DNA of 64,000 bases. It comes from Candidatus Methylomirabilota bacterium (GTDB lineage Bacteria > Methylomirabilota > Methylomirabilia > Rokubacteriales > CSP1-6). Each line of letters opens with the position of its first letter. The first letter of the stretch is position 1. The translations under genes and the position numbers were made by a program. This document shows, piece by piece, positions 6,744-55,458 of this stretch. Location: positions 695-64,694 of the forward strand of contig DASRHC010000011.1 of NCBI GenBank assembly GCA_035650715.1, written 5' to 3'. Below the pieces are notes generated by a model. That model was not told the origin of the DNA. It searched no databases and was given only the letters and a program-made list of their open reading frames with translations.

Positions 6744-7979
6744 TCAGGCCACGCCCACGAGGTATCCGAAGCGCTTGACGAACTCGGACTCCGTCATGTT
6801 GGCGGCCCGCGCGAGCGCCTCCCGCCGCTCGGGCTGCTCGAAGTCCTCGCGCTTGAGGCGGATCATGTACGCCTCGAGGGTGCGGTACGCCTCCGAGTGG
6901 ATGTCCGCGTAGCGAACGCGGATCTTGCCGGTCGTGGGATCCAGGAGATTCCCGAACGGAATCGGGACGAGCCGGCCGCCCTGGATGGTGGCCAGCGCCT
7001 CGCTGCCGCCGTCGAGCAGGAAGCACGTCGCCCAGTAGCCGAGGCTCCGGCAGTACTGGATGTCGAACCCGCCGGGCGGGGCGCAGCGGAGCTCGTAGCC
7101 GAGATCCTTGGCCACGATACCGGTCTCGATCCCCCGCGCGGCCAGGCTCGCGGTCACCTGCGTCTTGAGCAGTCCCGCCAGCTCCAGCTCCTGCAGGCGC
7201 ACGTTGCCGTAGGCGTCGCGGGCCACCGTGCCCAGCGTCTGCGGGTCGAGCTTCACGAGGAGACCCTCGGCGAGGAGCGCGACGCCGTGGTCCCGGCCGT
7301 GGACCAGCCGCTTGATGATCGCCCCTTCGAGGATGTCCGCCAGCCGCTGGATGGGCACGTGGGTCTCCGGGAACTCCTCGGCGACCACGGTGAGGGTCGC
7401 CCCGGCGGCCCCGCCGATGCCCAGCGCCAGGTGCCCGGCGTGGCGGCCCATCACGGTCACGAAGAACCACTTGCCGGTCGTGGCCGCGTCCTTCATGAGA
7501 TTGCGGACGAGCTGCATGCCCAGATCCACCGCGGTGGTGAAGCCGAAGGTCGGGATCTCGGGCGGCAGCGGCAGGTCGTTGTCGATGGTCTTGGGGACGT
7601 GGACCACCGCCATCCGGCCGCCGGCCGCGCGAGCCACGCGTGACGCCGCGAAGGCGGTGTCGTCGCCGCCGATGGTGAGCAGGTACGAGACGTCGAGACG
7701 GCGCAGCGATTCGACGACGTGCCGGAGGGCCTCCGGCGACCGGGTGGGGTTCGCGCGGGCCGTGCGCAGGATCGAGCCGCCCTCGAAGTGGATCTGGGAC
7801 AGCGCCCCGATCTCCAGCTCGTGCACGCGGGAGAGGTCGCCCTGCATGAGCCACTTGAAGCCGTCCTCGCAGCCGAGCACCCGGAGGCCGCGGTTGCGGG
7901 CCTCGATGGTGGCGGCCGCGATGACCGCGTTGATGCCCGGCGCCGGGCCGCCGCCCACCAGGATCGCGAGCGTCTTCAT
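6744..7979 (-). CDS. pfp: 6-phosphofructokinase, PPi-dependent type (GGDDT and PKTIDND signatures)
   Basis: MKTLAILVGGGPAPGINAVI...TIGGDDTAF...VVHVPKTIDNDL...MGRHAGHLAL. Asp in GGDD and Lys in KTIDND are the classical PPi-PFK discriminators (ATP-PFK has GGDG/GTIDND). Confidence 0.85.
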   Translation of the reverse strand: MKTLAILVGGGPAPGINAVIAAATIEARNRGLRVLGCEDGFKWLMQGDLSRVHELEIGALSQIHFEGGSILRTARANPTRSPEALRHVVESLRRLDVSYLLTIGGDDTAFAASRVARAAGGRMAVVHVPKTIDNDLPLPPEIPTFGFTTAVDLGMQLVRNLMKDAATTGKWFFVTVMGRHAGHLALGIGGAAGATLTVVAEEFPETHVPIQRLADILEGAIIKRLVHGRDHGVALLAEGLLVKLDPQTLGTVARDAYGNVRLQELELAGLLKTQVTASLAARGIETGIVAKDLGYELRCAPPGGFDIQYCRSLGYWATCFLLDGGSEALATIQGGRLVPIPFGNLLDPTTGKIRVRYADIHSEAYRTLEAYMIRLKREDFEQPERREALARAANMTESEFVKRFGYLVGVA

Positions 7980-48367: not shown

Positions 48368-49384
48368 ATGAAGGTCGGCATCTTCCTCACGAACCAGAAC
48401 CCGCTCGGGACCGACATGGTCTCCGCGCTCCACGAGCAGTTCGCGATGACGCGCCTGGCGCGCGATCGGGGCTGGGACGCGGTCGCCACCGGCCAGCACT
48501 ACCTGAGCGAGGGCATGAGCCAGCTCCAGCTCGTTCCGTTCCTGGCGCGGCTGGCCGCCGAGGCGGGGGAGATGACCGGGGTCGCCGGCGTGCTGCTCAT
48601 CAACCTGCACAACCCGGTCGAGGTGGCCGAGTGCATCGCCTCGCTCGACGTCATCTGGCGCGGCAACTTCGTGTTCGGGGTGGGGCTCGGCTATCGCGAC
48701 GTCGAGTTCGACGCGTTCAACGTCCCGAAGGGCCAGCGCCTGCAGCGGTTCGAGGAGTGCCTGGAGATCGTCAAGCGCCTGTGGACCGAGGACGGCGTCA
48801 GCGTCGAGACCGACGTCTGCAAGCTCGCGAACGTGACCTTGACCTGCCGGCCCGCGCAGCGGCCGCACCCGCCCATCTGGTTCGCGGCCAACAGCGACGC
48901 GGCGGTGCGCCGGGCGGCCCGTCTGGGCGACACCTGGTTCGTGAACCCGCACGCGACCATGGCCAGCATCACGCGCCAGATGGGCCTCTACCGGGAGGAG
49001 CGCGCGCGCCTGGGCAAGCCGTGGCCGCGCGTGCGGCCGCTCATCAAGGAGATCTACTGCGCGAAGGACCGGCGAACCGCCCTCGAGCTGGCCGGGCCCT
49101 ATCTCGGCGCGAAGTACCGCGCCTACGCGTCCTGGGGCCAGGACGCGGTGCTGCCCGACGGCGACACGTTCCGCCAGCCCTTCGAGGCGCTGCTGCGCGA
49201 CCGCTTCGTGCTGGGCAGCCCCGAGGAGTGCTACGAGCAGCTCCGCCCGTGCTGGGAAGCGGTCGGCGCGAACTTCCTCTTCTTCCGCACGCACTGGCTC
49301 GGCATGCCGCTCGCCCACGCGCTGGCGAGCATGCGGCTGATGAGCGACGAGCTGTTGCCGGCGCTGCGGAAGATCGCGCCCTAG
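48368..49384 (+). CDS. LLM-class flavin-dependent oxidoreductase (luciferase-like, F420/FMN-type)
   Basis: MKVGIFLTNQNP...GQHYLSEG...FVFGVGLGYRDVEF...FAANSDAAVRRAARLGDTW. Confidence 0.8.
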   Translation: MKVGIFLTNQNPLGTDMVSALHEQFAMTRLARDRGWDAVATGQHYLSEGMSQLQLVPFLARLAAEAGEMTGVAGVLLINLHNPVEVAECIASLDVIWRGNFVFGVGLGYRDVEFDAFNVPKGQRLQRFEECLEIVKRLWTEDGVSVETDVCKLANVTLTCRPAQRPHPPIWFAANSDAAVRRAARLGDTWFVNPHATMASITRQMGLYREERARLGKPWPRVRPLIKEIYCAKDRRTALELAGPYLGAKYRAYASWGQDAVLPDGDTFRQPFEALLRDRFVLGSPEECYEQLRPCWEAVGANFLFFRTHWLGMPLAHALASMRLMSDELLPALRKIAP

Positions 49385-49640
49385 GCGGTGGCCGGGGCGA
49401 CCTCCACCCCGTTCACCGTGTCGACCGTCTTGTAGTGCCCGGGGGAGGTGATCTCCAGGATCTCCACGTCCTCCGACCAGCCGGTCACGGTGTGCGACAG
49501 CCCGGGCGGGATGATGTGGCAGTCGCCCGCCTGGAGCTTGTGCTCGCCGTGGCCGTGGTAGTGGAAGCTCATCCAGCCCTTCAGCACGTAGTCCTCGAGG
49601 TGCGTGACCAGCAGGGACTGCTTGAGCTCCGACTTCGGCA
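49381..49640 (-). CDS. cupin domain protein
   Basis: MPKSELKQSLLVTHLEDYVLKGWMSFHYHGHGEHKLQAGDCHIIPPGLSHTV is the cupin 2-His motif. GGAGG RBS. Confidence 0.7.
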
Positions 49641-49793
49641 TGGCGAGCCTCCGGAGTGAGGGTGATGGGGACGGCGTGCCGGACCGCCCGCGCCGCCCGC
49701 TCCCCACGTAGCCCGCGGGGAGCGACCCTGTCAAGGAGATTCGGCCGCCGGCGCGACCCCGAGGGGCGCCTGGCGAGGCCGCAACCGGCCACG

Positions 49794-49813
49794 TATTGGA
49801 CTAACGTCCAATA
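49794..49813. promoter_or_regulatory. perfect 8-4-8 palindrome TATTGGAC-taac-GTCCAATA (box D of a repeated TTGGAC-N4-GTCCAA motif)
   Basis: Lies in the divergent region between the cupin gene and the Cys-rich small ORF, about 35-50 nt upstream of the latter's start. Confidence 0.5.
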
Positions 49814-49837
49814 GGCCCGGCCGGCAACGCCCGTACA

Positions 49838-50155
49838 GTGGGTGTCATGCGTCGGCGACGCGTGGCCATCGTTCCGTCACCGGAGGCAAGGTCCGCGTCC
49901 GGCCTCCCAGGGGCATCGGCGAGCGACGATCGGGCGGTGCCGCTCGACCTGACCGAGAGCGTGGTGCGGGACTACCTGCGGCGCCATCCAGACCGAGCGT
50001 ATTGCCCGCCGTGTGCTGGCCGAGCGGTGGGCGGTGATCTGCCCGCTCTCGCCGTCTCGGGGGTCATGGCCCAGCTGGCGGGGCGCCGGCCGCCGTTCGA
50101 GGCGGGACGCTGCCGCTGCGGCGCCGAAGGACTCATGTTCGTGGCCAGGCGGTAA
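49838..50155 (+). CDS. hypothetical Cys-rich small protein (CPPC...CRC)
   Basis: MGVMRRRRVAIVPSPEARS...RDYLRRHPDRAYCPPCAGRA...EAGRCRCGAEGLMFVARR. Real start may be the ATG at about 49847. Preceded by box D. Confidence 0.4.
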   Translation: MGVMRRRRVAIVPSPEARSASGLPGASASDDRAVPLDLTESVVRDYLRRHPDRAYCPPCAGRAVGGDLPALAVSGVMAQLAGRRPPFEAGRCRCGAEGLMFVARR

Positions 50156-50166
50156 CGGAGGCGGCC

Positions 50167-50364
50167 GTGCCGGGTGGGGTCCTCGTCGGCATTCTGCGCG
50201 TCCGGCACGCCGATCACCTCGTTTTGCACGACGGGACCCAGGTGTTCCTGACCGGCAAGCAGACCGCTCGCGAGTTCCCGATCGGCACCAGCCTCACCGT
50301 CTCGTACACGCTCAAGAAGGACGGCAAGAAGATCGTCGACACCATCTGGCGCACGGACGCGTGA
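50167..50364 (+). CDS. hypothetical small protein (65 aa)
   Basis: GTG start with GGAGG 7 nt upstream: VPGGVLVGILRVRHADHLVLHDGTQVFLTGKQTAREFPIGTSLTVSYTLKKDGKKIVDTIWRTDA. Predicted beta-rich. No family assigned. Confidence 0.4.
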   Translation: MPGGVLVGILRVRHADHLVLHDGTQVFLTGKQTAREFPIGTSLTVSYTLKKDGKKIVDTIWRTDA

Positions 50365-50398
50365 GCGCTCTCATGGGGCCGGCACCGAGCCGCCCGGC

Positions 50399-50414
50399 TT
50401 GGACCTTGGTCCCA
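50399..50414. promoter_or_regulatory. TTGGAC-cttg-GTCCCA palindromic box (box A)
   Basis: About 75 nt upstream of the 50488 ORF. Shares half-sites with boxes B, C and D. Confidence 0.45.
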
Positions 50415-50487
50415 TATCGCGGTTCCGCGAGGGCCCCTACACTCGAAGCTCACGACACACATTCTCCGAAGCGCCAGGAGGAGTCCA

Positions 50488-50853
50488 ATGCAACTGGGGG
50501 ACGTCAGGCTCAAGACCGGGATCTGGGGTGCGGTGGCGGGCAGTGTGATCACCATGATCGTGGGGTTCAGCTGGGGGGGATGGACGACGAGCGGCACCGC
50601 CCGGCAGATGGCGCTGAAGCAGGCTGATACGGCGGTCACCGCCGCACTGGTGCCGATCTGTGTGGCCGGGCCGAAGGCCGACGTCGCTCGCGTGAAGAAG
50701 CTCGAGGAGCTTCGCGCCATCACGTCCTCCTACGACCAGACCGACTTCGTGATGAAGACCGGGTGGGCCAGCTTTGCGGGACAGGCGGAGCCCAATCGCG
50801 CCGTGGCCGAGGGCTGCGCCTCTGCCCTGCTCGAGACCGCCAGCACGAAGTAG
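50488..50853 (+). CDS. hypothetical membrane-anchored protein (one TM helix)
   Basis: MQLGDVRLKTGIWGAVAGSVITMIVGFSWGGW... AGGAGGAG RBS. Confidence 0.5.
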   Translation: MQLGDVRLKTGIWGAVAGSVITMIVGFSWGGWTTSGTARQMALKQADTAVTAALVPICVAGPKADVARVKKLEELRAITSSYDQTDFVMKTGWASFAGQAEPNRAVAEGCASALLETASTK

Positions 50854-50941
50854 CGCCCGTAGTCCGAGCCCGGGCCGCCTCGGATGGGAGGCGGCCGAGT
50901 AGGTTGCCCGCGGGGGGACGGAAGACTATAGTGGCCACTGG

Positions 50942-52417
50942 ATGTGGAGTTCGTGGCCCCTCGTCGTTGTCCTCTGCCTGGTCCTGCTCGTACCGTTCGG
51001 CTGGATGCGATCGCCTCCTGCGGTCGCCGCCGCGAACGGTGCCGGCCTCCCGGATGGATGGATCGCTCCACATCTCGTCGAGGCGCTTCTCGTCCTGGGC
51101 GCGGCCCTGCTCGTCTTCCGGTTGGCTCTGGAGCGATCGCGCCGGAGGCGTGCCGAGCGCTCGCTCGGTGAGCGACTCCGGTTCGAGACCTTGCTGTCCG
51201 AGCAAGTCGCGATGTTCAGTCGCGTGTCGGGTGCCGACGTCGACCCGGCCATCCAGCGCTCCCTCCGCCAGATGGCCGATTTCCTGGTGGTGGACTGGGG
51301 CACGCTGACCGAGTACTCGGGCGATGGCGGGACGGCACGGCCGACCCACTGGTGGGCGGCGGAGGGGGTGCGGCCCAAGCCATCTGCGGTCGGGTTCGAC
51401 GAGATCCCGTGGGTCGGCGCCCGGCTGCGGCGCGGAGAGCTGGTCAGGTTCTCCCGGCTCGATGAGCTCCCGGAAGAGGACGCGGCGCTCGATCGGCGAA
51501 CGTACCGTCGGCTCGGCATCAAGTCCCTGGTCGCGGTTCCCTTGACGGTGGAAGGGGCGGTGGTCGGCGCCCTGGCGTTCAGCACCGTCGGGACCGAGCG
51601 CGCGTGGCGGGACGAGTTCGTGCAGCGGCTTCATCTGCTCGGGGAAGTGCTGGCCAGCGCGCTGTCGCGCCGTCGCGCGGACATGGAGGCACAGCGGCTG
51701 CGCCAGGATCTGGCCCATGTCGGGCGCGTGTCGACGATGGGGCAGCTCACCGCGTCGCTCGCCCACGAGCTCAATCAGCCCCTGACCGCGATCCTCAGCA
51801 ACGCCCAGGCGGCCCAGCGCATGCTCGAGTCGGATCCGGCGGATCCGGTCGAGATTCGCGAGATCCTGCGGGACATCGTCGCCGACGACAAGCGGGCCGG
51901 TGAGGTGATCCAGCGATTGCGCGGGTTCCTCCGGAATGGCGATCTCCAGCTCGCCGCCCTCGACGTCGAAGACCTGGTGAGCCAGGTCGCGCGTCTCGTG
52001 AGCAGCGACGCGATCATCCGTAACGTGGCGATGGAGCTCGATCTGGCCGCCGACCTGCCTCCGGTCGCGGGGGACCGGGTGCAGCTGCAGCAGGTGGTCT
52101 TGAACCTGCTCATGAACGGGCTGGACGCGATGGCCGAGCCGAGTGCGGGAGGGCGGACCATCGTGCTGCGGACCTTCCGGGGCGGCCCGGCGACCGTGGT
52201 GGTGTCGGTGGAGGATTCGGGGGTCGGCATCGATGGGGCCGACCTGGAACGCGTCTTCGAGGCGTTCTACACGACGAAGCCCGAAGGGCTGGGGATGGGT
52301 CTGGCGATCGCGCGCTCCATCGTGCACGCGCACGGTGGCGAGTTGGAGGCCCGGAACAACGCTCGGGGGGGCGCCACGTTCTCGTTCACCTTGCGGACCG
52401 CGGCGGGCGAGCGATGA
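50942..52417 (+). CDS. sensor histidine kinase with two N-terminal TM helices and a GAF domain
   Basis: HisKA H-box STMGQLTASLAHELNQPL. HATPase_c N/G boxes (LNLLMNGLDAM, DSGVGI, GLGMGLAIA). Central GAF-like region. Confidence 0.85.
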   Translation: MWSSWPLVVVLCLVLLVPFGWMRSPPAVAAANGAGLPDGWIAPHLVEALLVLGAALLVFRLALERSRRRRAERSLGERLRFETLLSEQVAMFSRVSGADVDPAIQRSLRQMADFLVVDWGTLTEYSGDGGTARPTHWWAAEGVRPKPSAVGFDEIPWVGARLRRGELVRFSRLDELPEEDAALDRRTYRRLGIKSLVAVPLTVEGAVVGALAFSTVGTERAWRDEFVQRLHLLGEVLASALSRRRADMEAQRLRQDLAHVGRVSTMGQLTASLAHELNQPLTAILSNAQAAQRMLESDPADPVEIREILRDIVADDKRAGEVIQRLRGFLRNGDLQLAALDVEDLVSQVARLVSSDAIIRNVAMELDLAADLPPVAGDRVQLQQVVLNLLMNGLDAMAEPSAGGRTIVLRTFRGGPATVVVSVEDSGVGIDGADLERVFEAFYTTKPEGLGMGLAIARSIVHAHGGELEARNNARGGATFSFTLRTAAGER

Positions 52418-53040
52418 ACGTTCCGACGACCGCGGTCGTGTTCGTGGTGGACGACGACGCGGCGGTGCGAAAGAGCCTGGCGCGACTGGCCCGGGCGGCG
52501 GGCCATCGGGCGGAAACGTTCGAGTCGGTTCGCGACTTCCTCGCCCGTGAGCCGTACGAGGGTCCCTGCTGTCTGGTGCTGGACGTCCGCATGCCCGGGC
52601 TGACCGGGCTGGACCTCCAGGCGGCGCTGGCCGCGGCCGGGCTGCGCGTGGCGATCGTGTTCATCACCGGCCATCGCGACGTCCCGGTGAGCGTGAAGGC
52701 CATGAAGGGCGGCGCCGTGGACTTCCTCGTGAAGCCGGTGGACCAGCAGGTCCTGCTGAGTGCCATCCAGCAGGCGGTGGCGCGGACGCTGACCGATCGA
52801 CGGCACGAGGCACGGGCGAGCGAGGTACGGAGCCGCATCGCGAGCCTGACCCCGCGGGAGGCCGCCGTCTTCGCGCTGGTGGTGGCGGGAATGCTGAACA
52901 AGCAGATCGGGTCCGAGCTCGGCATCGCGGAGAAGACGGTGAAGGTACACCGAGGCCGGGTCATGGAGAAGATGAGGGCGGGATCCCTCGCGGAGCTGGT
53001 TCGGCTCGCGGGGGAAGGGGGCGTCATCGGCGCGGGCTGA
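52414..53040 (+). CDS. response regulator, FixJ/NarL (LuxR-type HTH) family
   Basis: REC (VVFVVDDDAAVRKS...LVLDVRMPGLTGLDL...FITGHRDV...KPVD) plus a LuxR HTH (LTPREAAVFALVVAGMLNKQIGSELGIAEKTVKVHRGRVMEKM). Very close to the FixJ architecture. 4-nt overlap with the kinase gene. Confidence 0.85.
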   Translation: MNVPTTAVVFVVDDDAAVRKSLARLARAAGHRAETFESVRDFLAREPYEGPCCLVLDVRMPGLTGLDLQAALAAAGLRVAIVFITGHRDVPVSVKAMKGGAVDFLVKPVDQQVLLSAIQQAVARTLTDRRHEARASEVRSRIASLTPREAAVFALVVAGMLNKQIGSELGIAEKTVKVHRGRVMEKMRAGSLAELVRLAGEGGVIGAG

Positions 53041-53054
53041 AGACGGCCCGGGAG

Positions 53055-53071
53055 TTGGGACGAAGGTCCAC
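53055..53071. promoter_or_regulatory. TTGGGAC-gaag-GTCCAC palindromic box (box B)
   Basis: About 40 nt upstream of the ATG of the REC-only regulator. The core GGAC-N4-GTCC resembles NarL/DosR-type boxes (GGGACT-N-AGTCCC). Confidence 0.45.
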
Positions 53072-53108
53072 TATCCCTCCCGGCGGGGTCCGGTACGATG
53101 ACCGGGAG

Positions 53109-53492
53109 ATGACCCTCGCGAGCCCGCTGATCTGCATAGTGGACGACGATCTGTCGGTACGCCGCGCGCTCGGCCGGCTCATCACGTCGGCGGGCTACGC
53201 GGTCGCGACGTTCGGGTCGGCCCGGGACTTCCTGACCCTGGCGCCGTCGGTCCGCACCGCGTGTCTGGTGCTGGACATCTATCTGGACGAGATGGATGGA
53301 TTCGAGCTGCAGGCGAGGTTGGCGGCGGACCGGGCGGACATCCCGATCATCTTCATGACCGCCCACGATGATGCGACGACGCGCGAGCGTATCGAGCGCG
53401 CCGGGGTGGCCGGTGTTCTGGGGAAGCCGTTCGACGGCGAGCGGTTGCTCGAGGCGATCCGCGGGGTGGTCGATCGAGGCGCGGGAGCGTGA
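53109..53492 (+). CDS. single-domain response regulator (REC only)
   Basis: MTLASPLICIVDDDLSVRRALGRLITSAGYAV...LVLDIYLDEMDGFEL...IFMTAHDD...KPFD. Confidence 0.8.
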   Translation: MTLASPLICIVDDDLSVRRALGRLITSAGYAVATFGSARDFLTLAPSVRTACLVLDIYLDEMDGFELQARLAADRADIPIIFMTAHDDATTRERIERAGVAGVLGKPFDGERLLEAIRGVVDRGAGA

Positions 53493-53637
53493 ACGGACCG
53501 GTTGGACGAAGGTCCCATGGCTCTGGGTACTCAAGCGCAGGGCTTCAAGACTCTGTCCGAGGGCGACAAGGTGGAGTTCGACGTGAACCGAGGCCCGAAG
53601 GGACTCCTGGCCGCCAACGTGCGGGAGGCCTGATCGA
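53493..53637 (+). pseudogene. 3' remnant of a cold-shock protein (CspA family) gene
   Basis: ...[40 protein letters not shown] matches the CspA C-terminus (...[30 protein letters not shown]). The N-terminal RNP1/RNP2 half is absent. It begins immediately after the REC gene stop. Confidence 0.55.
53502..53517. promoter_or_regulatory. TTGGAC-gaag-GTCCCA palindromic box (box C)
   Basis: Abuts the ATG of the truncated csp remnant. Same spacer sequence (gaag) as box B. Confidence 0.45.
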
Positions 53638-53664
53638 CGAAGGAGAGCGCGCCGCCCGCCCGGA

Positions 53665-54285
53665 TCAGGCGTGCGGCAGCTGCGAGAGAACGCGCTGCTT
53701 GAAGTGGGCTTCCTTCGCCGGGTCCCCGATCTCCCGGGCGATCGCCTCGACGAGCCGCGTGGTCTCCTGCGGCGAGCCGAGACCGGGGTGACCCGCGAGG
53801 TATTCCTGGCAGATCATCCCCGCCATGGGGCCCAGGAACTCGGCCAGCTCGCGCTCCAGCAGCGGTCGGATCCGGCCCATCGCTTCTGCGGCCTCGGCGG
53901 GCGGTCGCGTGGCGGTCGCCGGGCTCACATCCGGCCTGGGCGCCGCTTGCGACACCACCGACACCGGTCCTGACGCGGCGCCCAGGTGGGCGAGGATCTC
54001 GGCGGTCGCGGGGAGTCGCGGATCCACCGATGGCACCGACGCCTGCTCGAAGCGGTACCGCGCCGCGCTGAAGGTCTGAAGCGGCGCCAGGGCGTCCGGT
54101 CCGCGCATGAGTCGATAGCTCAGGCCGACGATCTCCCCCTCGCGAAGGACGACCTGGGCGGGATGGTTCTCGAGCGTGATGATGAACAGCGTGCCCGTGC
54201 CCCGGGCGGCGCACAGGGACTGGAGCTCCGCGATCACCTGATCGCGCGGCCGGAGCTCCGCGTCGCCCGGACGTTCGGCCGCCAT
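53665..54285 (-). CDS. DUF4388 (PATAN-like) domain protein
   Basis: ...LCAARGTGTLFIITLENHPAQVVLREGEIVGLSY... resembles the DUF4388 signalling-associated domain. C-terminal low-complexity region. Confidence 0.5.
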   Translation of the reverse strand: MAAERPGDAELRPRDQVIAELQSLCAARGTGTLFIITLENHPAQVVLREGEIVGLSYRLMRGPDALAPLQTFSAARYRFEQASVPSVDPRLPATAEILAHLGAASGPVSVVSQAAPRPDVSPATATRPPAEAAEAMGRIRPLLERELAEFLGPMAGMICQEYLAGHPGLGSPQETTRLVEAIAREIGDPAKEAHFKQRVLSQLPHA

Positions 54286-54306
54286 GCGGATGGAGTGGGG
54301 CGGTCG

Positions 54307-55458
54307 CTACCCGGCTGAGCGCCGGTCGGCGAGGCCGGGGCCGGGACGTTTCCAGCCGGTGCCGCCCGTTCCCGCCGACTCGGACCGTGTTGGGGTGAGG
54401 CGCGCCATGGCGGCCTTGATGCTGGCGCCCAGGCGGTCGACGGCCCGAGCCAGCGCGCCGATCTCGTCGGAGCGGCCCGCCTCCGGGATGGAGGCCTTGA
54501 GGTTTCCCCGGCTGATCTCGTCCGCGATCCGGGTGAGGCTGCGGATCGGACGGGTGAGCCGCTGGGCCAGCAGGTACGACGCCAGCACCACGAGCAGCAG
54601 GGTCAGGGCGAGCAGCACCAGCGCGTTGCGGTTGGCCGCGGTGATGGGGGCGTAGGCCTCCTGGACGTCCTGCTGGACCACCAGGGTCCAGCCCTCCTTG
54701 GTCTTGCGCGCGTAGGCGAGCATCGACCGGCCGGCCTCGTCGGTGTACACGATCCGCTTCTTGGTGACATCCGAGCGGCCCAGGAAGGCCGGGTGCTGGC
54801 TCAGATCCTTGAGGCCCTCGACGTACTCCTTCCGCGGGTGCGCGATGACCTTGCCGGTGGTGTCCAGCAGGAAGGCGTGGCCCGTCCGTCCGATCTGGAC
54901 CCCCGCGATGCTGCTGGAGACGTCGTTGATCGTCATGCCGATGGCGAGCACGCCGACCAGGCGCTGCTCGGCGGTGACGGGGACCGACAGGATGAGGGCG
55001 GGCTGGCCGTTGGTCCGGCTGATCACGACCTGCTGGCCGAGCGGAGCGCCGTGGAGGACTTGCTGGACGTAGAGCCGGTCGCCGTAGTTCTTCGGCGTGT
55101 CCTGATCGCTTCGTCCGATGTTGGTGCCGTCCGGCGCGATGGTGAAGGCGAGATAGACCGCCTTGTACTCGTTGGCGATGGCGACCAGGGTCCGGCGCTG
55201 CCGCCGGGCGTCCATCGAGACGATATCGTCGAGCGCGGCGTTCTGCCGCAGCATCTTGACGTTCATCTCGGTCCAGGCGTCGACGAAGGTGCCGACCGCC
55301 TCCGCCCGGTCCCCCAGCTGCTGGTCGACCGCGTGCTCGATCCGTTCCACCGCCGCGCGCTGGTTCACGTACCAGATGGCGCCGAGCGGGATCACCGCCA
55401 CCGCGATCATCGTCAGGAGCACCTTGGGGAAGATGCCGAAGGTTGGCCGCTTTGCCAT
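54307..55458 (-). CDS. membrane sensor protein: double Cache (dCache_1) plus HAMP, no output domain
   Basis: N-terminal TM, periplasmic Cache-like region, second TM (ALVLLALTLLLVVLASYLLA), HAMP (RLTRPIRSLTRIADEISRGNL...DEIGALARAVDRLGASI). The ORF ends about 60 aa after HAMP. GAGGAG RBS. Confidence 0.7.
   Translation of the reverse strand: MAKRPTFGIFPKVLLTMIAVAVIPLGAIWYVNQRAAVERIEHAVDQQLGDRAEAVGTFVDAWTEMNVKMLRQNAALDDIVSMDARRQRRTLVAIANEYKAVYLAFTIAPDGTNIGRSDQDTPKNYGDRLYVQQVLHGAPLGQQVVISRTNGQPALILSVPVTAEQRLVGVLAIGMTINDVSSSIAGVQIGRTGHAFLLDTTGKVIAHPRKEYVEGLKDLSQHPAFLGRSDVTKKRIVYTDEAGRSMLAYARKTKEGWTLVVQQDVQEAYAPITAANRNALVLLALTLLLVVLASYLLAQRLTRPIRSLTRIADEISRGNLKASIPEAGRSDEIGALARAVDRLGASIKAAMARLTPTRSESAGTGGTGWKRPGPGLADRRSAG

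Follow-up and report, generated by a model that had tools for sequence, protein, structure and literature searches.

The locus described here raises the question of which protein reads four copies of a palindrome of the form TTGGAC-N4-GTCCAA that surround a small group of two-component genes in a Candidatus Methylomirabilota bacterium (assembly GCA_035650715.1, contig DASRHC010000011.1). The stretch of this contig that was analysed, 64,000 nucleotides from position 695 to 64,694, is referred to below as the window. A first-pass annotation of the window took the palindromes, or boxes, to be operators of the adjacent LuxR/FixJ-type response regulator, and this interpretation is supported by our analysis in silico. 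All four sites were verified where the annotation had placed them, and its assignment of the neighbouring genes (sensor kinase, regulator, receiver-only protein and csp remnant) was upheld by Pfam. It is suggested, with a probability that we put at roughly 0.8, that the palindromes serve as operators to which the adjacent FixJ/StyR-type regulator binds as a phosphorylated dimer, and that the promoters to which they belong depend on it as an activator.

The boxes and their promoters

A search of the window with TTGGACNNNNGTCCAA, allowing up to two mismatches, returned these four sites only, and the same was true of the shorter core GGAC-N4-GTCC. The number of short cores is not above chance (4 observed and 3.2 expected in the window); the unusual features are that all four boxes are intergenic and that they are clustered within 3.7 kb. 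A 20-bp weight matrix, trained only on sites from other genomes with the window excluded, was then applied with a cut-off of 12 bits. Exactly four positions in the window reached this value, and these are boxes 1 to 4 (Table 1), compared with a mean of 0.116 hits in 500 shuffled windows. Similarity between the sites stops at 20 bp. The central four bases fit the pattern YWWR only in box 2 (CTTG), with one Y/R position missed in box 1 (TAAC) and likewise in boxes 3 and 4 (GAAG).

The position of the boxes relative to -10-like hexamers was informative. In a survey covering 134 boxes in both orientations (268 orientations) and offsets of 10-69 nt from the box centre, a TAnnnT hexamer starts at offsets 30-32 in 81 of the 268 orientations, and each of the other offsets accounts for 0-7. 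Sites 1 to 3 of the window follow this spacing. The first-pass annotation had placed every box 0-80 nt before an open reading frame (ORF), and as a description of promoters this stands for sites 1 to 3, each with its -10, but fails for site 4, which has no -10 at the conserved spacing and abuts a deleted csp gene. At the -35 position sites 1 to 3 have TAGGCC, TATCGC and TATCCC, all poor matches to TTGACA. When four orthologous spacers between regulator and receiver genes were aligned, the only conserved islands were the box and its -10. If the TAnnnT hexamer occupies -12 to -7, the centre of the box would lie near -43.5. The elements of a class II (-35-overlapping) activator promoter, namely a site about 41-44 bp upstream, a -10 and a poor -35, are thus present here relative to predicted start sites. 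Because the box, about 43.5 bp upstream, takes the place of a usable -35 element, recruitment of RNA polymerase in the class II manner is the mechanism that we favour. The geometry between box and -10 is itself computed, and it is activation rather than repression that we infer.

Linkage of box and regulator across phyla

Eighty loci were fetched by their similarity to the window kinase and scanned for the box core. It was found only beside the closest relatives of the kinase and regulator, in loci that belong to five phyla: Methylomirabilota (L011 and L013), an Acidobacteriota metagenome-assembled genome (MAG; L014), Polyangiaceae and Polyangium (L015 and L017, the latter from Polyangium jinanense SDU13), a bin labelled Heliomicrobium (L016), Desulfobacterales (L018) and an alphaproteobacterial MAG (L063). 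Some 70 more distant FixL-like loci held nothing comparable to the box, the apparent exception being L085, in which a box lies directly upstream of a receiver-only gene. Ten contigs with an identical regulator (L001-L010) are Methylomirabilota metagenome assemblies and are uninformative on conservation, since they are 99.95-100% identical to the window. The sites of the relatives give the consensus (T)ATTGGAC-YWWR-GTCCAAT(A); across 23 such sites GGAC....GTCC is kept and the central four bases are mostly YWWR. Weaker boxes were recovered by the matrix scan upstream of the kinase genes of L011 and L012, upstream of the regulator gene of L014 and, in L013, between groES and the homologue of the 121-aa membrane protein. 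The order kinase, regulator, box, receiver-only gene, box recurs in L011 and L063, and in L013, L014, L016 and L018 the box directly upstream of the receiver-only gene is kept. The two checks that the first-pass annotation had named, enrichment of the boxes upstream of genes and their conservation in related genomes, were therefore both favourable.

The regulator itself belongs to the NarL/FixJ family of response regulators with a LuxR-type helix-turn-helix (HTH): Pfam recognises Response_reg (81 bits) and GerE (74 bits), and the DDD pocket, phospho-acceptor Asp, Thr and Lys are visible. Among the loci fetched by kinase similarity, every full-length regulator adjacent to a box has the recognition helix E-K-T-[V/I]-K-V-H-R, whereas FixJ-like regulators at box-free loci have E-[I/T/A/S/R/V/M/Q]-T or E-Q-N at the same position. 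Where a full-length regulator is present, a box accompanies nine of the ten EKT helices and none of the 19 others (Fisher p = 1e-6). At the tenth EKT locus, Lysobacter arvi L021, the receiver-only gene is preceded by a variant of the box, TAGGCCCAAGGGCCAA. On the basis of this co-occurrence, the shared helix and the fit of the box to the EL222 consensus discussed below, it is proposed that a dimer of the regulator reads the two GGAC half-sites of T-ATTGGAC-YWWR-GTCCAAT-A, and the adjacent DNA-binding regulator is the best candidate for the protein that binds the boxes.

The L021 site (7500-7530) is of some interest in its own right. GGCC replaces GGAC in this box, and the part of the helix that follows the shared EKTIKVHR is different (SHVMHKL). 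The helix and the variant box may represent a co-varying pair of protein and site.

Metagenome contigs were also scanned for the perfect 18-mer ATTGGACYWWRGTCCAAT, which occurs in at least 120 stretches; the figures that follow refer to the 80 loci that were listed and analysed. The flanking position is T in 102 of 172 half-sites, in loci that are only 41% A+T overall, and since the bases outside the searched 18-mer are so far from random the natural box is considered to be 20 bp long. A homologue of the kinase, regulator or receiver is present in 12 of the 30 loci of at least 4 kb, and the helix of the full-length regulators in these is exactly EKT[V/I]KVHR in eight of 11, with EKTVKTHR in one more. 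The first-pass annotation had described a compact, self-contained regulon. This is probably not the case, as other organisms have perfect boxes that are also far from any such system.

Six of the listed contigs (L100, L106, L115, L137, L148 and L159) have two perfect 18-bp boxes a few kb apart. The stretches fetched for L100, L106, L115 and L148 contain no regulator homologue, and L148 contains a homologue of the kinase core. Their arrangement suggests local regulon islands.

The proposed circuit and its rivals

Judged by its domain architecture, the kinase would autophosphorylate in response to a cue and pass the phosphoryl group to the regulator, which would then act at the three promoters of the window. 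P1 would drive a transcript with the 65-aa protein. P2 would drive the 121-aa membrane protein, and its transcript probably extends through the kinase and regulator genes as well, which would result in positive autoregulation; terminator prediction found none before the kinase gene, and it is for this reason that read-through is thought probable. P3 would drive the receiver-only gene, the product of which is most likely a sink for phosphoryl groups from the kinase or a kinase inhibitor, and so would provide negative feedback. The regulator, its box and the box-driven receiver together may constitute an output module that is shared across phyla and is coupled to different sensors in each lineage.

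Downstream genes in the related loci are consistent with a central place for the receiver. Gene calling based on GC content at third codon positions (GC3) gave antisense artefacts in high-GC loci, and an ORF was therefore accepted as a target only where it followed a box whose -10 had the right spacing. The receiver-only gene forms the largest class (13 of 78 predicted downstream genes), and a box precedes it in the window, in L011, L013, L014, L016, L018, L063 and L085 and in several metagenome contigs; as the most widely shared target it suggests negative feedback. The catalytic residues (acidic pocket, phospho-acceptor Asp, conserved Thr and Lys) are retained in the receiver-only proteins, which can presumably be phosphorylated. 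A precedent for a single-domain receiver that is induced by its pathway and inhibits the kinase is FixT of Caulobacter (PMC7078487). The window protein is similarly a single-domain receiver that appears to be induced by its own pathway, judging from its box, but the 4-Cys Fe-S motif of FixT is missing: it contains two Cys, and an alignment of 11 receiver-only proteins shows a single invariant Cys column.

Of the other predicted targets, fatty-acid desaturase and DUF1254/DUF1214 proteins were each seen three times, and BON-domain proteins, groES, the 121-aa membrane protein, the kinase itself and LOG-family proteins twice. Single cases are DUF4136, DUF481, an outer-membrane beta-barrel, OmpA-VWA, MlaE, a POTRA protein, a sortase, an extracytoplasmic function (ECF) sigma factor, cytochrome c, rhodanese and DUF3300. 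The impression given by the list is one of a cell-envelope and stress flavour. With regard to groES, the gene with its upstream box adjoins the two-component system in both L011 (644-1036) and L013 (5860-8164), and groEL is next in L013. Only groES was read in L011, where a single box is flanked on either side by a correctly spaced -10 and appears to be shared by divergent promoters.

The cue to which the kinase responds is less readily deduced. Sensor domains on the orthologous modules include GAF (in some cases with a periplasmic-binding domain), PAS, HAMP, TPR, MASE1, a receiver domain, or a periplasmic-binding domain alone, and by this comparison the GAF sensor is lineage-specific. No informative relative of the window GAF domain was found among solved structures, and consequently no ligand can be inferred for it. 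The small-molecule, redox or gas signal that the GAF domain had initially brought to mind is neither favoured nor contradicted by these comparisons, in which the same output module is wired to many sensor types.

Several points weigh against the circuit as it is proposed here. Box 3, at 15.7 bits, is a weak match, and box 4, from comparison with related loci, is a promoter remnant, a relic that cannot act as a promoter. That transcription from P2 continues into the kinase gene is an assumption based only on the absence of a predicted terminator. In the two Polyangia loci a strong box lies just 3' of a convergent regulator gene (L015 4619-4638, L017 4857-4876), which does not agree with the simple scheme; transcription from a promoter at this box would enter the regulator gene in the antisense direction or serve a small unannotated gene. 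In addition, another locus of the genome could encode a protein that recognises these boxes, either a paralogous regulator of the EKT type or a LOV-HTH protein, and a site overlapping the -35 position could also repress.

The last two points correspond to alternative explanations of the boxes. In the first of these, a different LuxR-type protein that has this helix, either a paralogous regulator or a LOV-HTH protein like EL222, would be the main reader of the boxes, which would leave the regulator next to them as one of several inputs or as no input at all. EL222 is itself an example of a protein without a receiver that has this helix and reads the same core, many of the perfect boxes among the metagenome loci listed are on contigs without a nearby two-component system, and there are two kinases at some loci (L014 and L015). 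We nevertheless regard this as unlikely in view of the linkage of EKT-helix regulator and box at nine of ten loci, the tenth having a variant box, and of the position of the boxes, across phyla, immediately upstream of the kinase, regulator or receiver genes of the system itself. FixJ, StyR and LuxR are activators, and it is still less likely that the regulator binds the boxes as a repressor that occludes the -35 region until a signal removes it. Although the box does overlap the would-be -35 position, and EL222 represses when its site lies within the core promoter (PMC5001607), the hexamers TAGGCC, TATCGC and TATCCC are so poor in comparison with TTGACA that the promoters would be weak without help. 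The tight spacing between box and -10 is also what would be required by the face-of-the-helix contacts of an activator, and an EL222 site that replaced the lux box, overlapping the -35 element and so in this very position, activated transcription in E. coli (PMC5001607).

It is very improbable that the palindromes are not protein-binding sites at all, and instead are RNA hairpins (terminators or processing sites) or copies of a repeat of the repetitive extragenic palindromic (REP) or miniature inverted-repeat transposable element (MITE) type. Sites 3 and 4 do follow stop codons, and site 1 folds as a stable 8-bp hairpin (z = -4.5). It is, however, the only site to fold significantly, sites 2 to 4 being no better than shuffled sequence (z = -1.8, -1.0 and -0.7); T-tract terminators were not found, Rfam gave no family match, and it is specific bases (GGAC, YWWR and the flanking T and A) that are conserved, with no compensatory change. 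A fixed distance to a downstream -10 would be meaningless for a hairpin or a repeat alike, and a repeat is further at odds with similarity that ends at 20 bp and with recurrence across phyla that is always in the company of one regulator type. Both the hairpin or terminator and the REP/MITE-type repeat were rejected on these grounds, and operators of the adjacent regulator remain the explanation that we prefer.

Known systems and the remainder of the locus

As proposed operators of a FixJ/StyR-type regulator, the boxes have their closest counterpart in sequence in the sites of EL222, a light-activated LOV-HTH transcription factor of Erythrobacter litoralis. The HTH domain of EL222 matches that of the window regulator at 55 bits, and EL222 offers the best experimental anchor for the specificity of this regulator. 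The EL222 helix SEKTVKMHRGLVMEKL (EKTVKMHR) is nearly identical to AEKTVKVHRGRVMEKM of the window regulator, and the box core GGAC-YWWR-GTCC is an exact instance of RGNCYWWRGNCY, the 12-bp consensus obtained for EL222 by systematic evolution of ligands by exponential enrichment (PMC10521638). Both a match to RGNCYWWRGNCY and the EKTVK helix start, by which EL222-type specificity would be recognised, are therefore found in the window, where binding is predicted. The two systems are also alike in dimer binding and in activation from a site that overlaps the -35 element. In contrast, EL222 is a one-component protein switched by its LOV domain where the window regulator has a phospho-receiver, its consensus is looser and is not described as the 20-bp T-ATTGGAC...GTCCAAT-A, and no box-driven receiver gene is known for it.

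The best NCBIfam matches are FixJ for the regulator and FixL for the kinase core, but with 212.9 bits against the FixJ equivalog NF006900 (cut-off 255) and 175 bits, over the kinase core only, against FixL NF041777 (cut-off 850) both fall short of membership. The window sensor has a GAF and no PAS domain while FixL has a heme-PAS, and the S. meliloti FixJ helix is PRTVEVHR. The classical FixL-FixJ system, which senses oxygen in Alphaproteobacteria, routes via FixK; compared with FixL-FixJ(-FixT), it is the regulator's own box that precedes the receiver gene here. Among solved structures the regulator is closest to StyR (1yio, E = 8e-52), which is its closest full-length structure, with FixJ (5xso) second. 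StyR and TodT bind 16-bp palindromes of the same 6-N4-6 layout ending in AC...GT (ATAAAC-N4-GTTTAT). The StyS-StyR and TodS-TodT systems, which serve aromatic compounds, differ from the present one in half-site and helix (AEVTVKVHR in StyR), the targets here are not catabolic operons, and the kinases are not of the double-sensor type of StyS and TodS.

NarL and DosR had at first been named as relatives of the regulator. It is of the FixJ/StyR type and not of theirs, but the analogy that was drawn with the DosR box is apt in mechanism. The DosS/DosT-DosR dormancy system of Mycobacterium similarly combines a GAF kinase with a LuxR-type regulator and a palindrome with the core GGAC-N4-GTCC. The DosR box is TTSGGGACTWWAGTCCCSAA, with the core GGGAC-N4-GTCCC, and the DosR helix, AEKTVKNY, starts with AEKTVK. 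DosS-type kinases use HisKA_3 and have tandem heme-binding GAF domains, whereas the window kinase has HisKA (PF00512) and a single GAF domain; the window regulator scores 179 bits against StyR and 57 bits against DevR, and the predicted targets differ. Orthology of the regulator with either DosR or FixJ is ruled out by the scores and the domain content. In DosR the base contacts are made by Lys179, Lys182 and Asn183 (PMC4082495).

In promoter layout there is a likeness to LuxR and the lux box, also a 20-bp inverted repeat that stands in for the -35 element, with its centre slightly upstream of -40. The centre of the lux box is at -42.5; LuxR differs in being activated by a ligand and not phosphorylated, and the sequence of its box is unrelated. 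A site of the FNR/CRP type, which would suit a position near -42, was considered and excluded, because the layout is TTG-N10-CAA as opposed to TTGAT-N4-ATCAA and no gene for such a regulator is conserved nearby. Full-text searches with the box half-sites and six exact 12-mer cores returned unrelated primer sequences only, in a body of text that leaves most subscription journals uncovered.

From these comparisons the regulators appear to form a FixJ/EL222-like clade that spans several phyla and is apparently unstudied. We suggest tentatively, at somewhat less than even odds, that an EKT-helix FixJ/EL222-type regulator, a 20-bp box near -43.5 and a box-driven decoy receiver make up an undescribed cross-phylum cassette that is placed behind many sensors. 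If so, the cassette would control a cell-envelope and stress regulon in soil Methylomirabilota, Acidobacteriota, Myxococcota and others, with a predicted content of BON, DUF1254/DUF1214, DUF4136, OmpA, MlaE and POTRA proteins, fatty-acid desaturase and GroES. The optogenetic tool EL222 would also gain a natural family context for its DNA specificity, and its phospho-regulated relatives may offer orthogonal or better-defined operators. An operator consensus and a promoter architecture would be at hand for a regulator clade common in poorly studied, mostly uncultured soil phyla, so that regulons could be read directly from MAGs, and the design would be a modular one, with a single combination of DNA-binding output and feedback receiver serving many types of sensor. 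The logic of the circuit is conventional, that of an ordinary two-component circuit with autoregulation and a feedback receiver, and involves no new mechanism; the value of the finding lies in annotation and in testable hypotheses.

Table 1. Features of the box locus (positions in the window; bit scores from the matrix trained without the window)
Feature	Position	Strand	Remarks
Box 1	49794-49813		Perfect 20-bp palindrome TATTGGACTAACGTCCAATA; halves TATTGGAC-TAAC-GTCCAATA; 32.5 bits
-10-like hexamer, P1	49834-49839	+	TACAGT; starts 30 nt right of box 1 centre
102-aa Cys-containing ORF	49847-50155	+	Directly after P1; doubtful as a gene, may be a leader region
65-aa hypothetical protein	50167-50364	+	Likely product of P1 transcript
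Box 2	50397-50416		GCTTGGACCTTGGTCCCATA; core 50399-50414 TTGGAC-CTTG-GTCCCA; 24.6 bits
-10-like hexamer, P2	50438-50443	+	TACACT; offset 31 from box 2 centre
121-aa predicted membrane protein	50488-50853	+	Family unknown; first gene of predicted P2 transcript
Sigma-70-like promoter	50904-50932	+	TTGCCC-17-TATAGT; just before kinase gene; 1 found, 0.1 expected
Sensor histidine kinase	50942-52417	+	N-terminal hydrophobic segments, then GAF + HisKA + HATPase_c (Pfam)
Response regulator	52414-53040	+	REC + GerE/LuxR HTH; recognition helix AEKTVKVHRGRVMEKM; proposed box binder
Box 3	53054-53073		GTTGGGACGAAGGTCCACTA; core 53055-53071 TTGGGAC-GAAG-GTCCAC; 15.7 bits
-10-like hexamer, P3	53094-53099	+	TACGAT; offset 30 from box 3 centre
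Single-domain receiver protein (REC only)	53109-53492	+	DDD pocket, phospho-acceptor Asp, conserved Thr and Lys kept
Box 4	53500-53519		GGTTGGACGAAGGTCCCATG; core 53502-53517 TTGGAC-GAAG-GTCCCA; 21.2 bits; no -10 at conserved spacing
csp remnant	53517-53633	+	Original start codon kept; C-terminal half of cold-shock domain

The remaining genes of the locus differ in how well they are supported. The ORF directly after P1, which the first-pass annotation had presented as a Cys-rich small protein, is doubtful as a gene: its GC content at codon positions 1, 2 and 3 (0.78, 0.63 and 0.79) is atypical compared with neighbouring genes, it is a singleton in protein clusters at 90% identity, and no gene is called for it on the contigs that carry an identical regulator. 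It had no match in Pfam or NCBIfam, and tblastn gave no hit in the related loci. The 65-aa gene that follows looks genuine, with a GC3 of 0.91, a gene call on all related contigs and a cluster of six members; Pfam and NCBIfam searches gave no family match for it. The 121-aa membrane protein has homologues at 43-46% identity in L011 and L013, and the L013 homologue has boxes upstream too. Full-length orthologues of the kinase are found in Methylomirabilota at 62-72% identity, and the sigma-70-like promoter before the kinase gene is probably its basal promoter.

At three promoters of the window the -10 lies only 8-10 nt before an ATG, namely at P1 (ATG 49847), at the sigma-70-like promoter (ATG 50942) and at P3 (ATG 53109), in the stretches 49834-49849, 50927-50944 and 53094-53111 respectively. 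Leaderless or nearly leaderless mRNAs are therefore implied. A normal leader, about 17 nt long and containing an AGGA motif, precedes the orthologous receiver gene of L011.

The history of box 4 may be reconstructed from related loci. The box that follows the receiver gene in L013 precedes a fatty-acid desaturase, and the corresponding box in L011 precedes a small ORF and the desaturase, after which there is an intact csp with its own promoter; a desaturase is again found with a box on metagenome contig L160. Compared with L011 8560-10260, the window (53496-53640) is without about 1.4 kb that comprises a 77-aa ORF, the fatty-acid desaturase and the promoter and leader of csp. In our reconstruction this deletion fused box 4 to the start codon of the csp gene, which is itself internally deleted. 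Alignment with the intact csp of L011 indicates that about 80 nt were lost from within the gene and with them the N-terminal half of the cold-shock domain, and only positions 34-65 of the Pfam CSD profile are matched. The right half of the box, CCAATAGGC, and the start of csp, TCAATGGC, share a short similarity in which the deletion junction may sit.

On either side of the box locus are genes of other kinds. An odd, sensor-like pair on the minus strand (53665-55458) is convergent with it and consists of a dCache_1+HAMP protein without a recognisable output domain (54307-55458) followed by a DUF8082 protein (53665-54285). At the other end a small cupin gene (49381-49644, minus strand) diverges from box 1 and is probably not under its control, as a box-spaced -10 in that direction is absent; beyond it lies a gene for a luciferase-like monooxygenase (48368-49384, plus strand).

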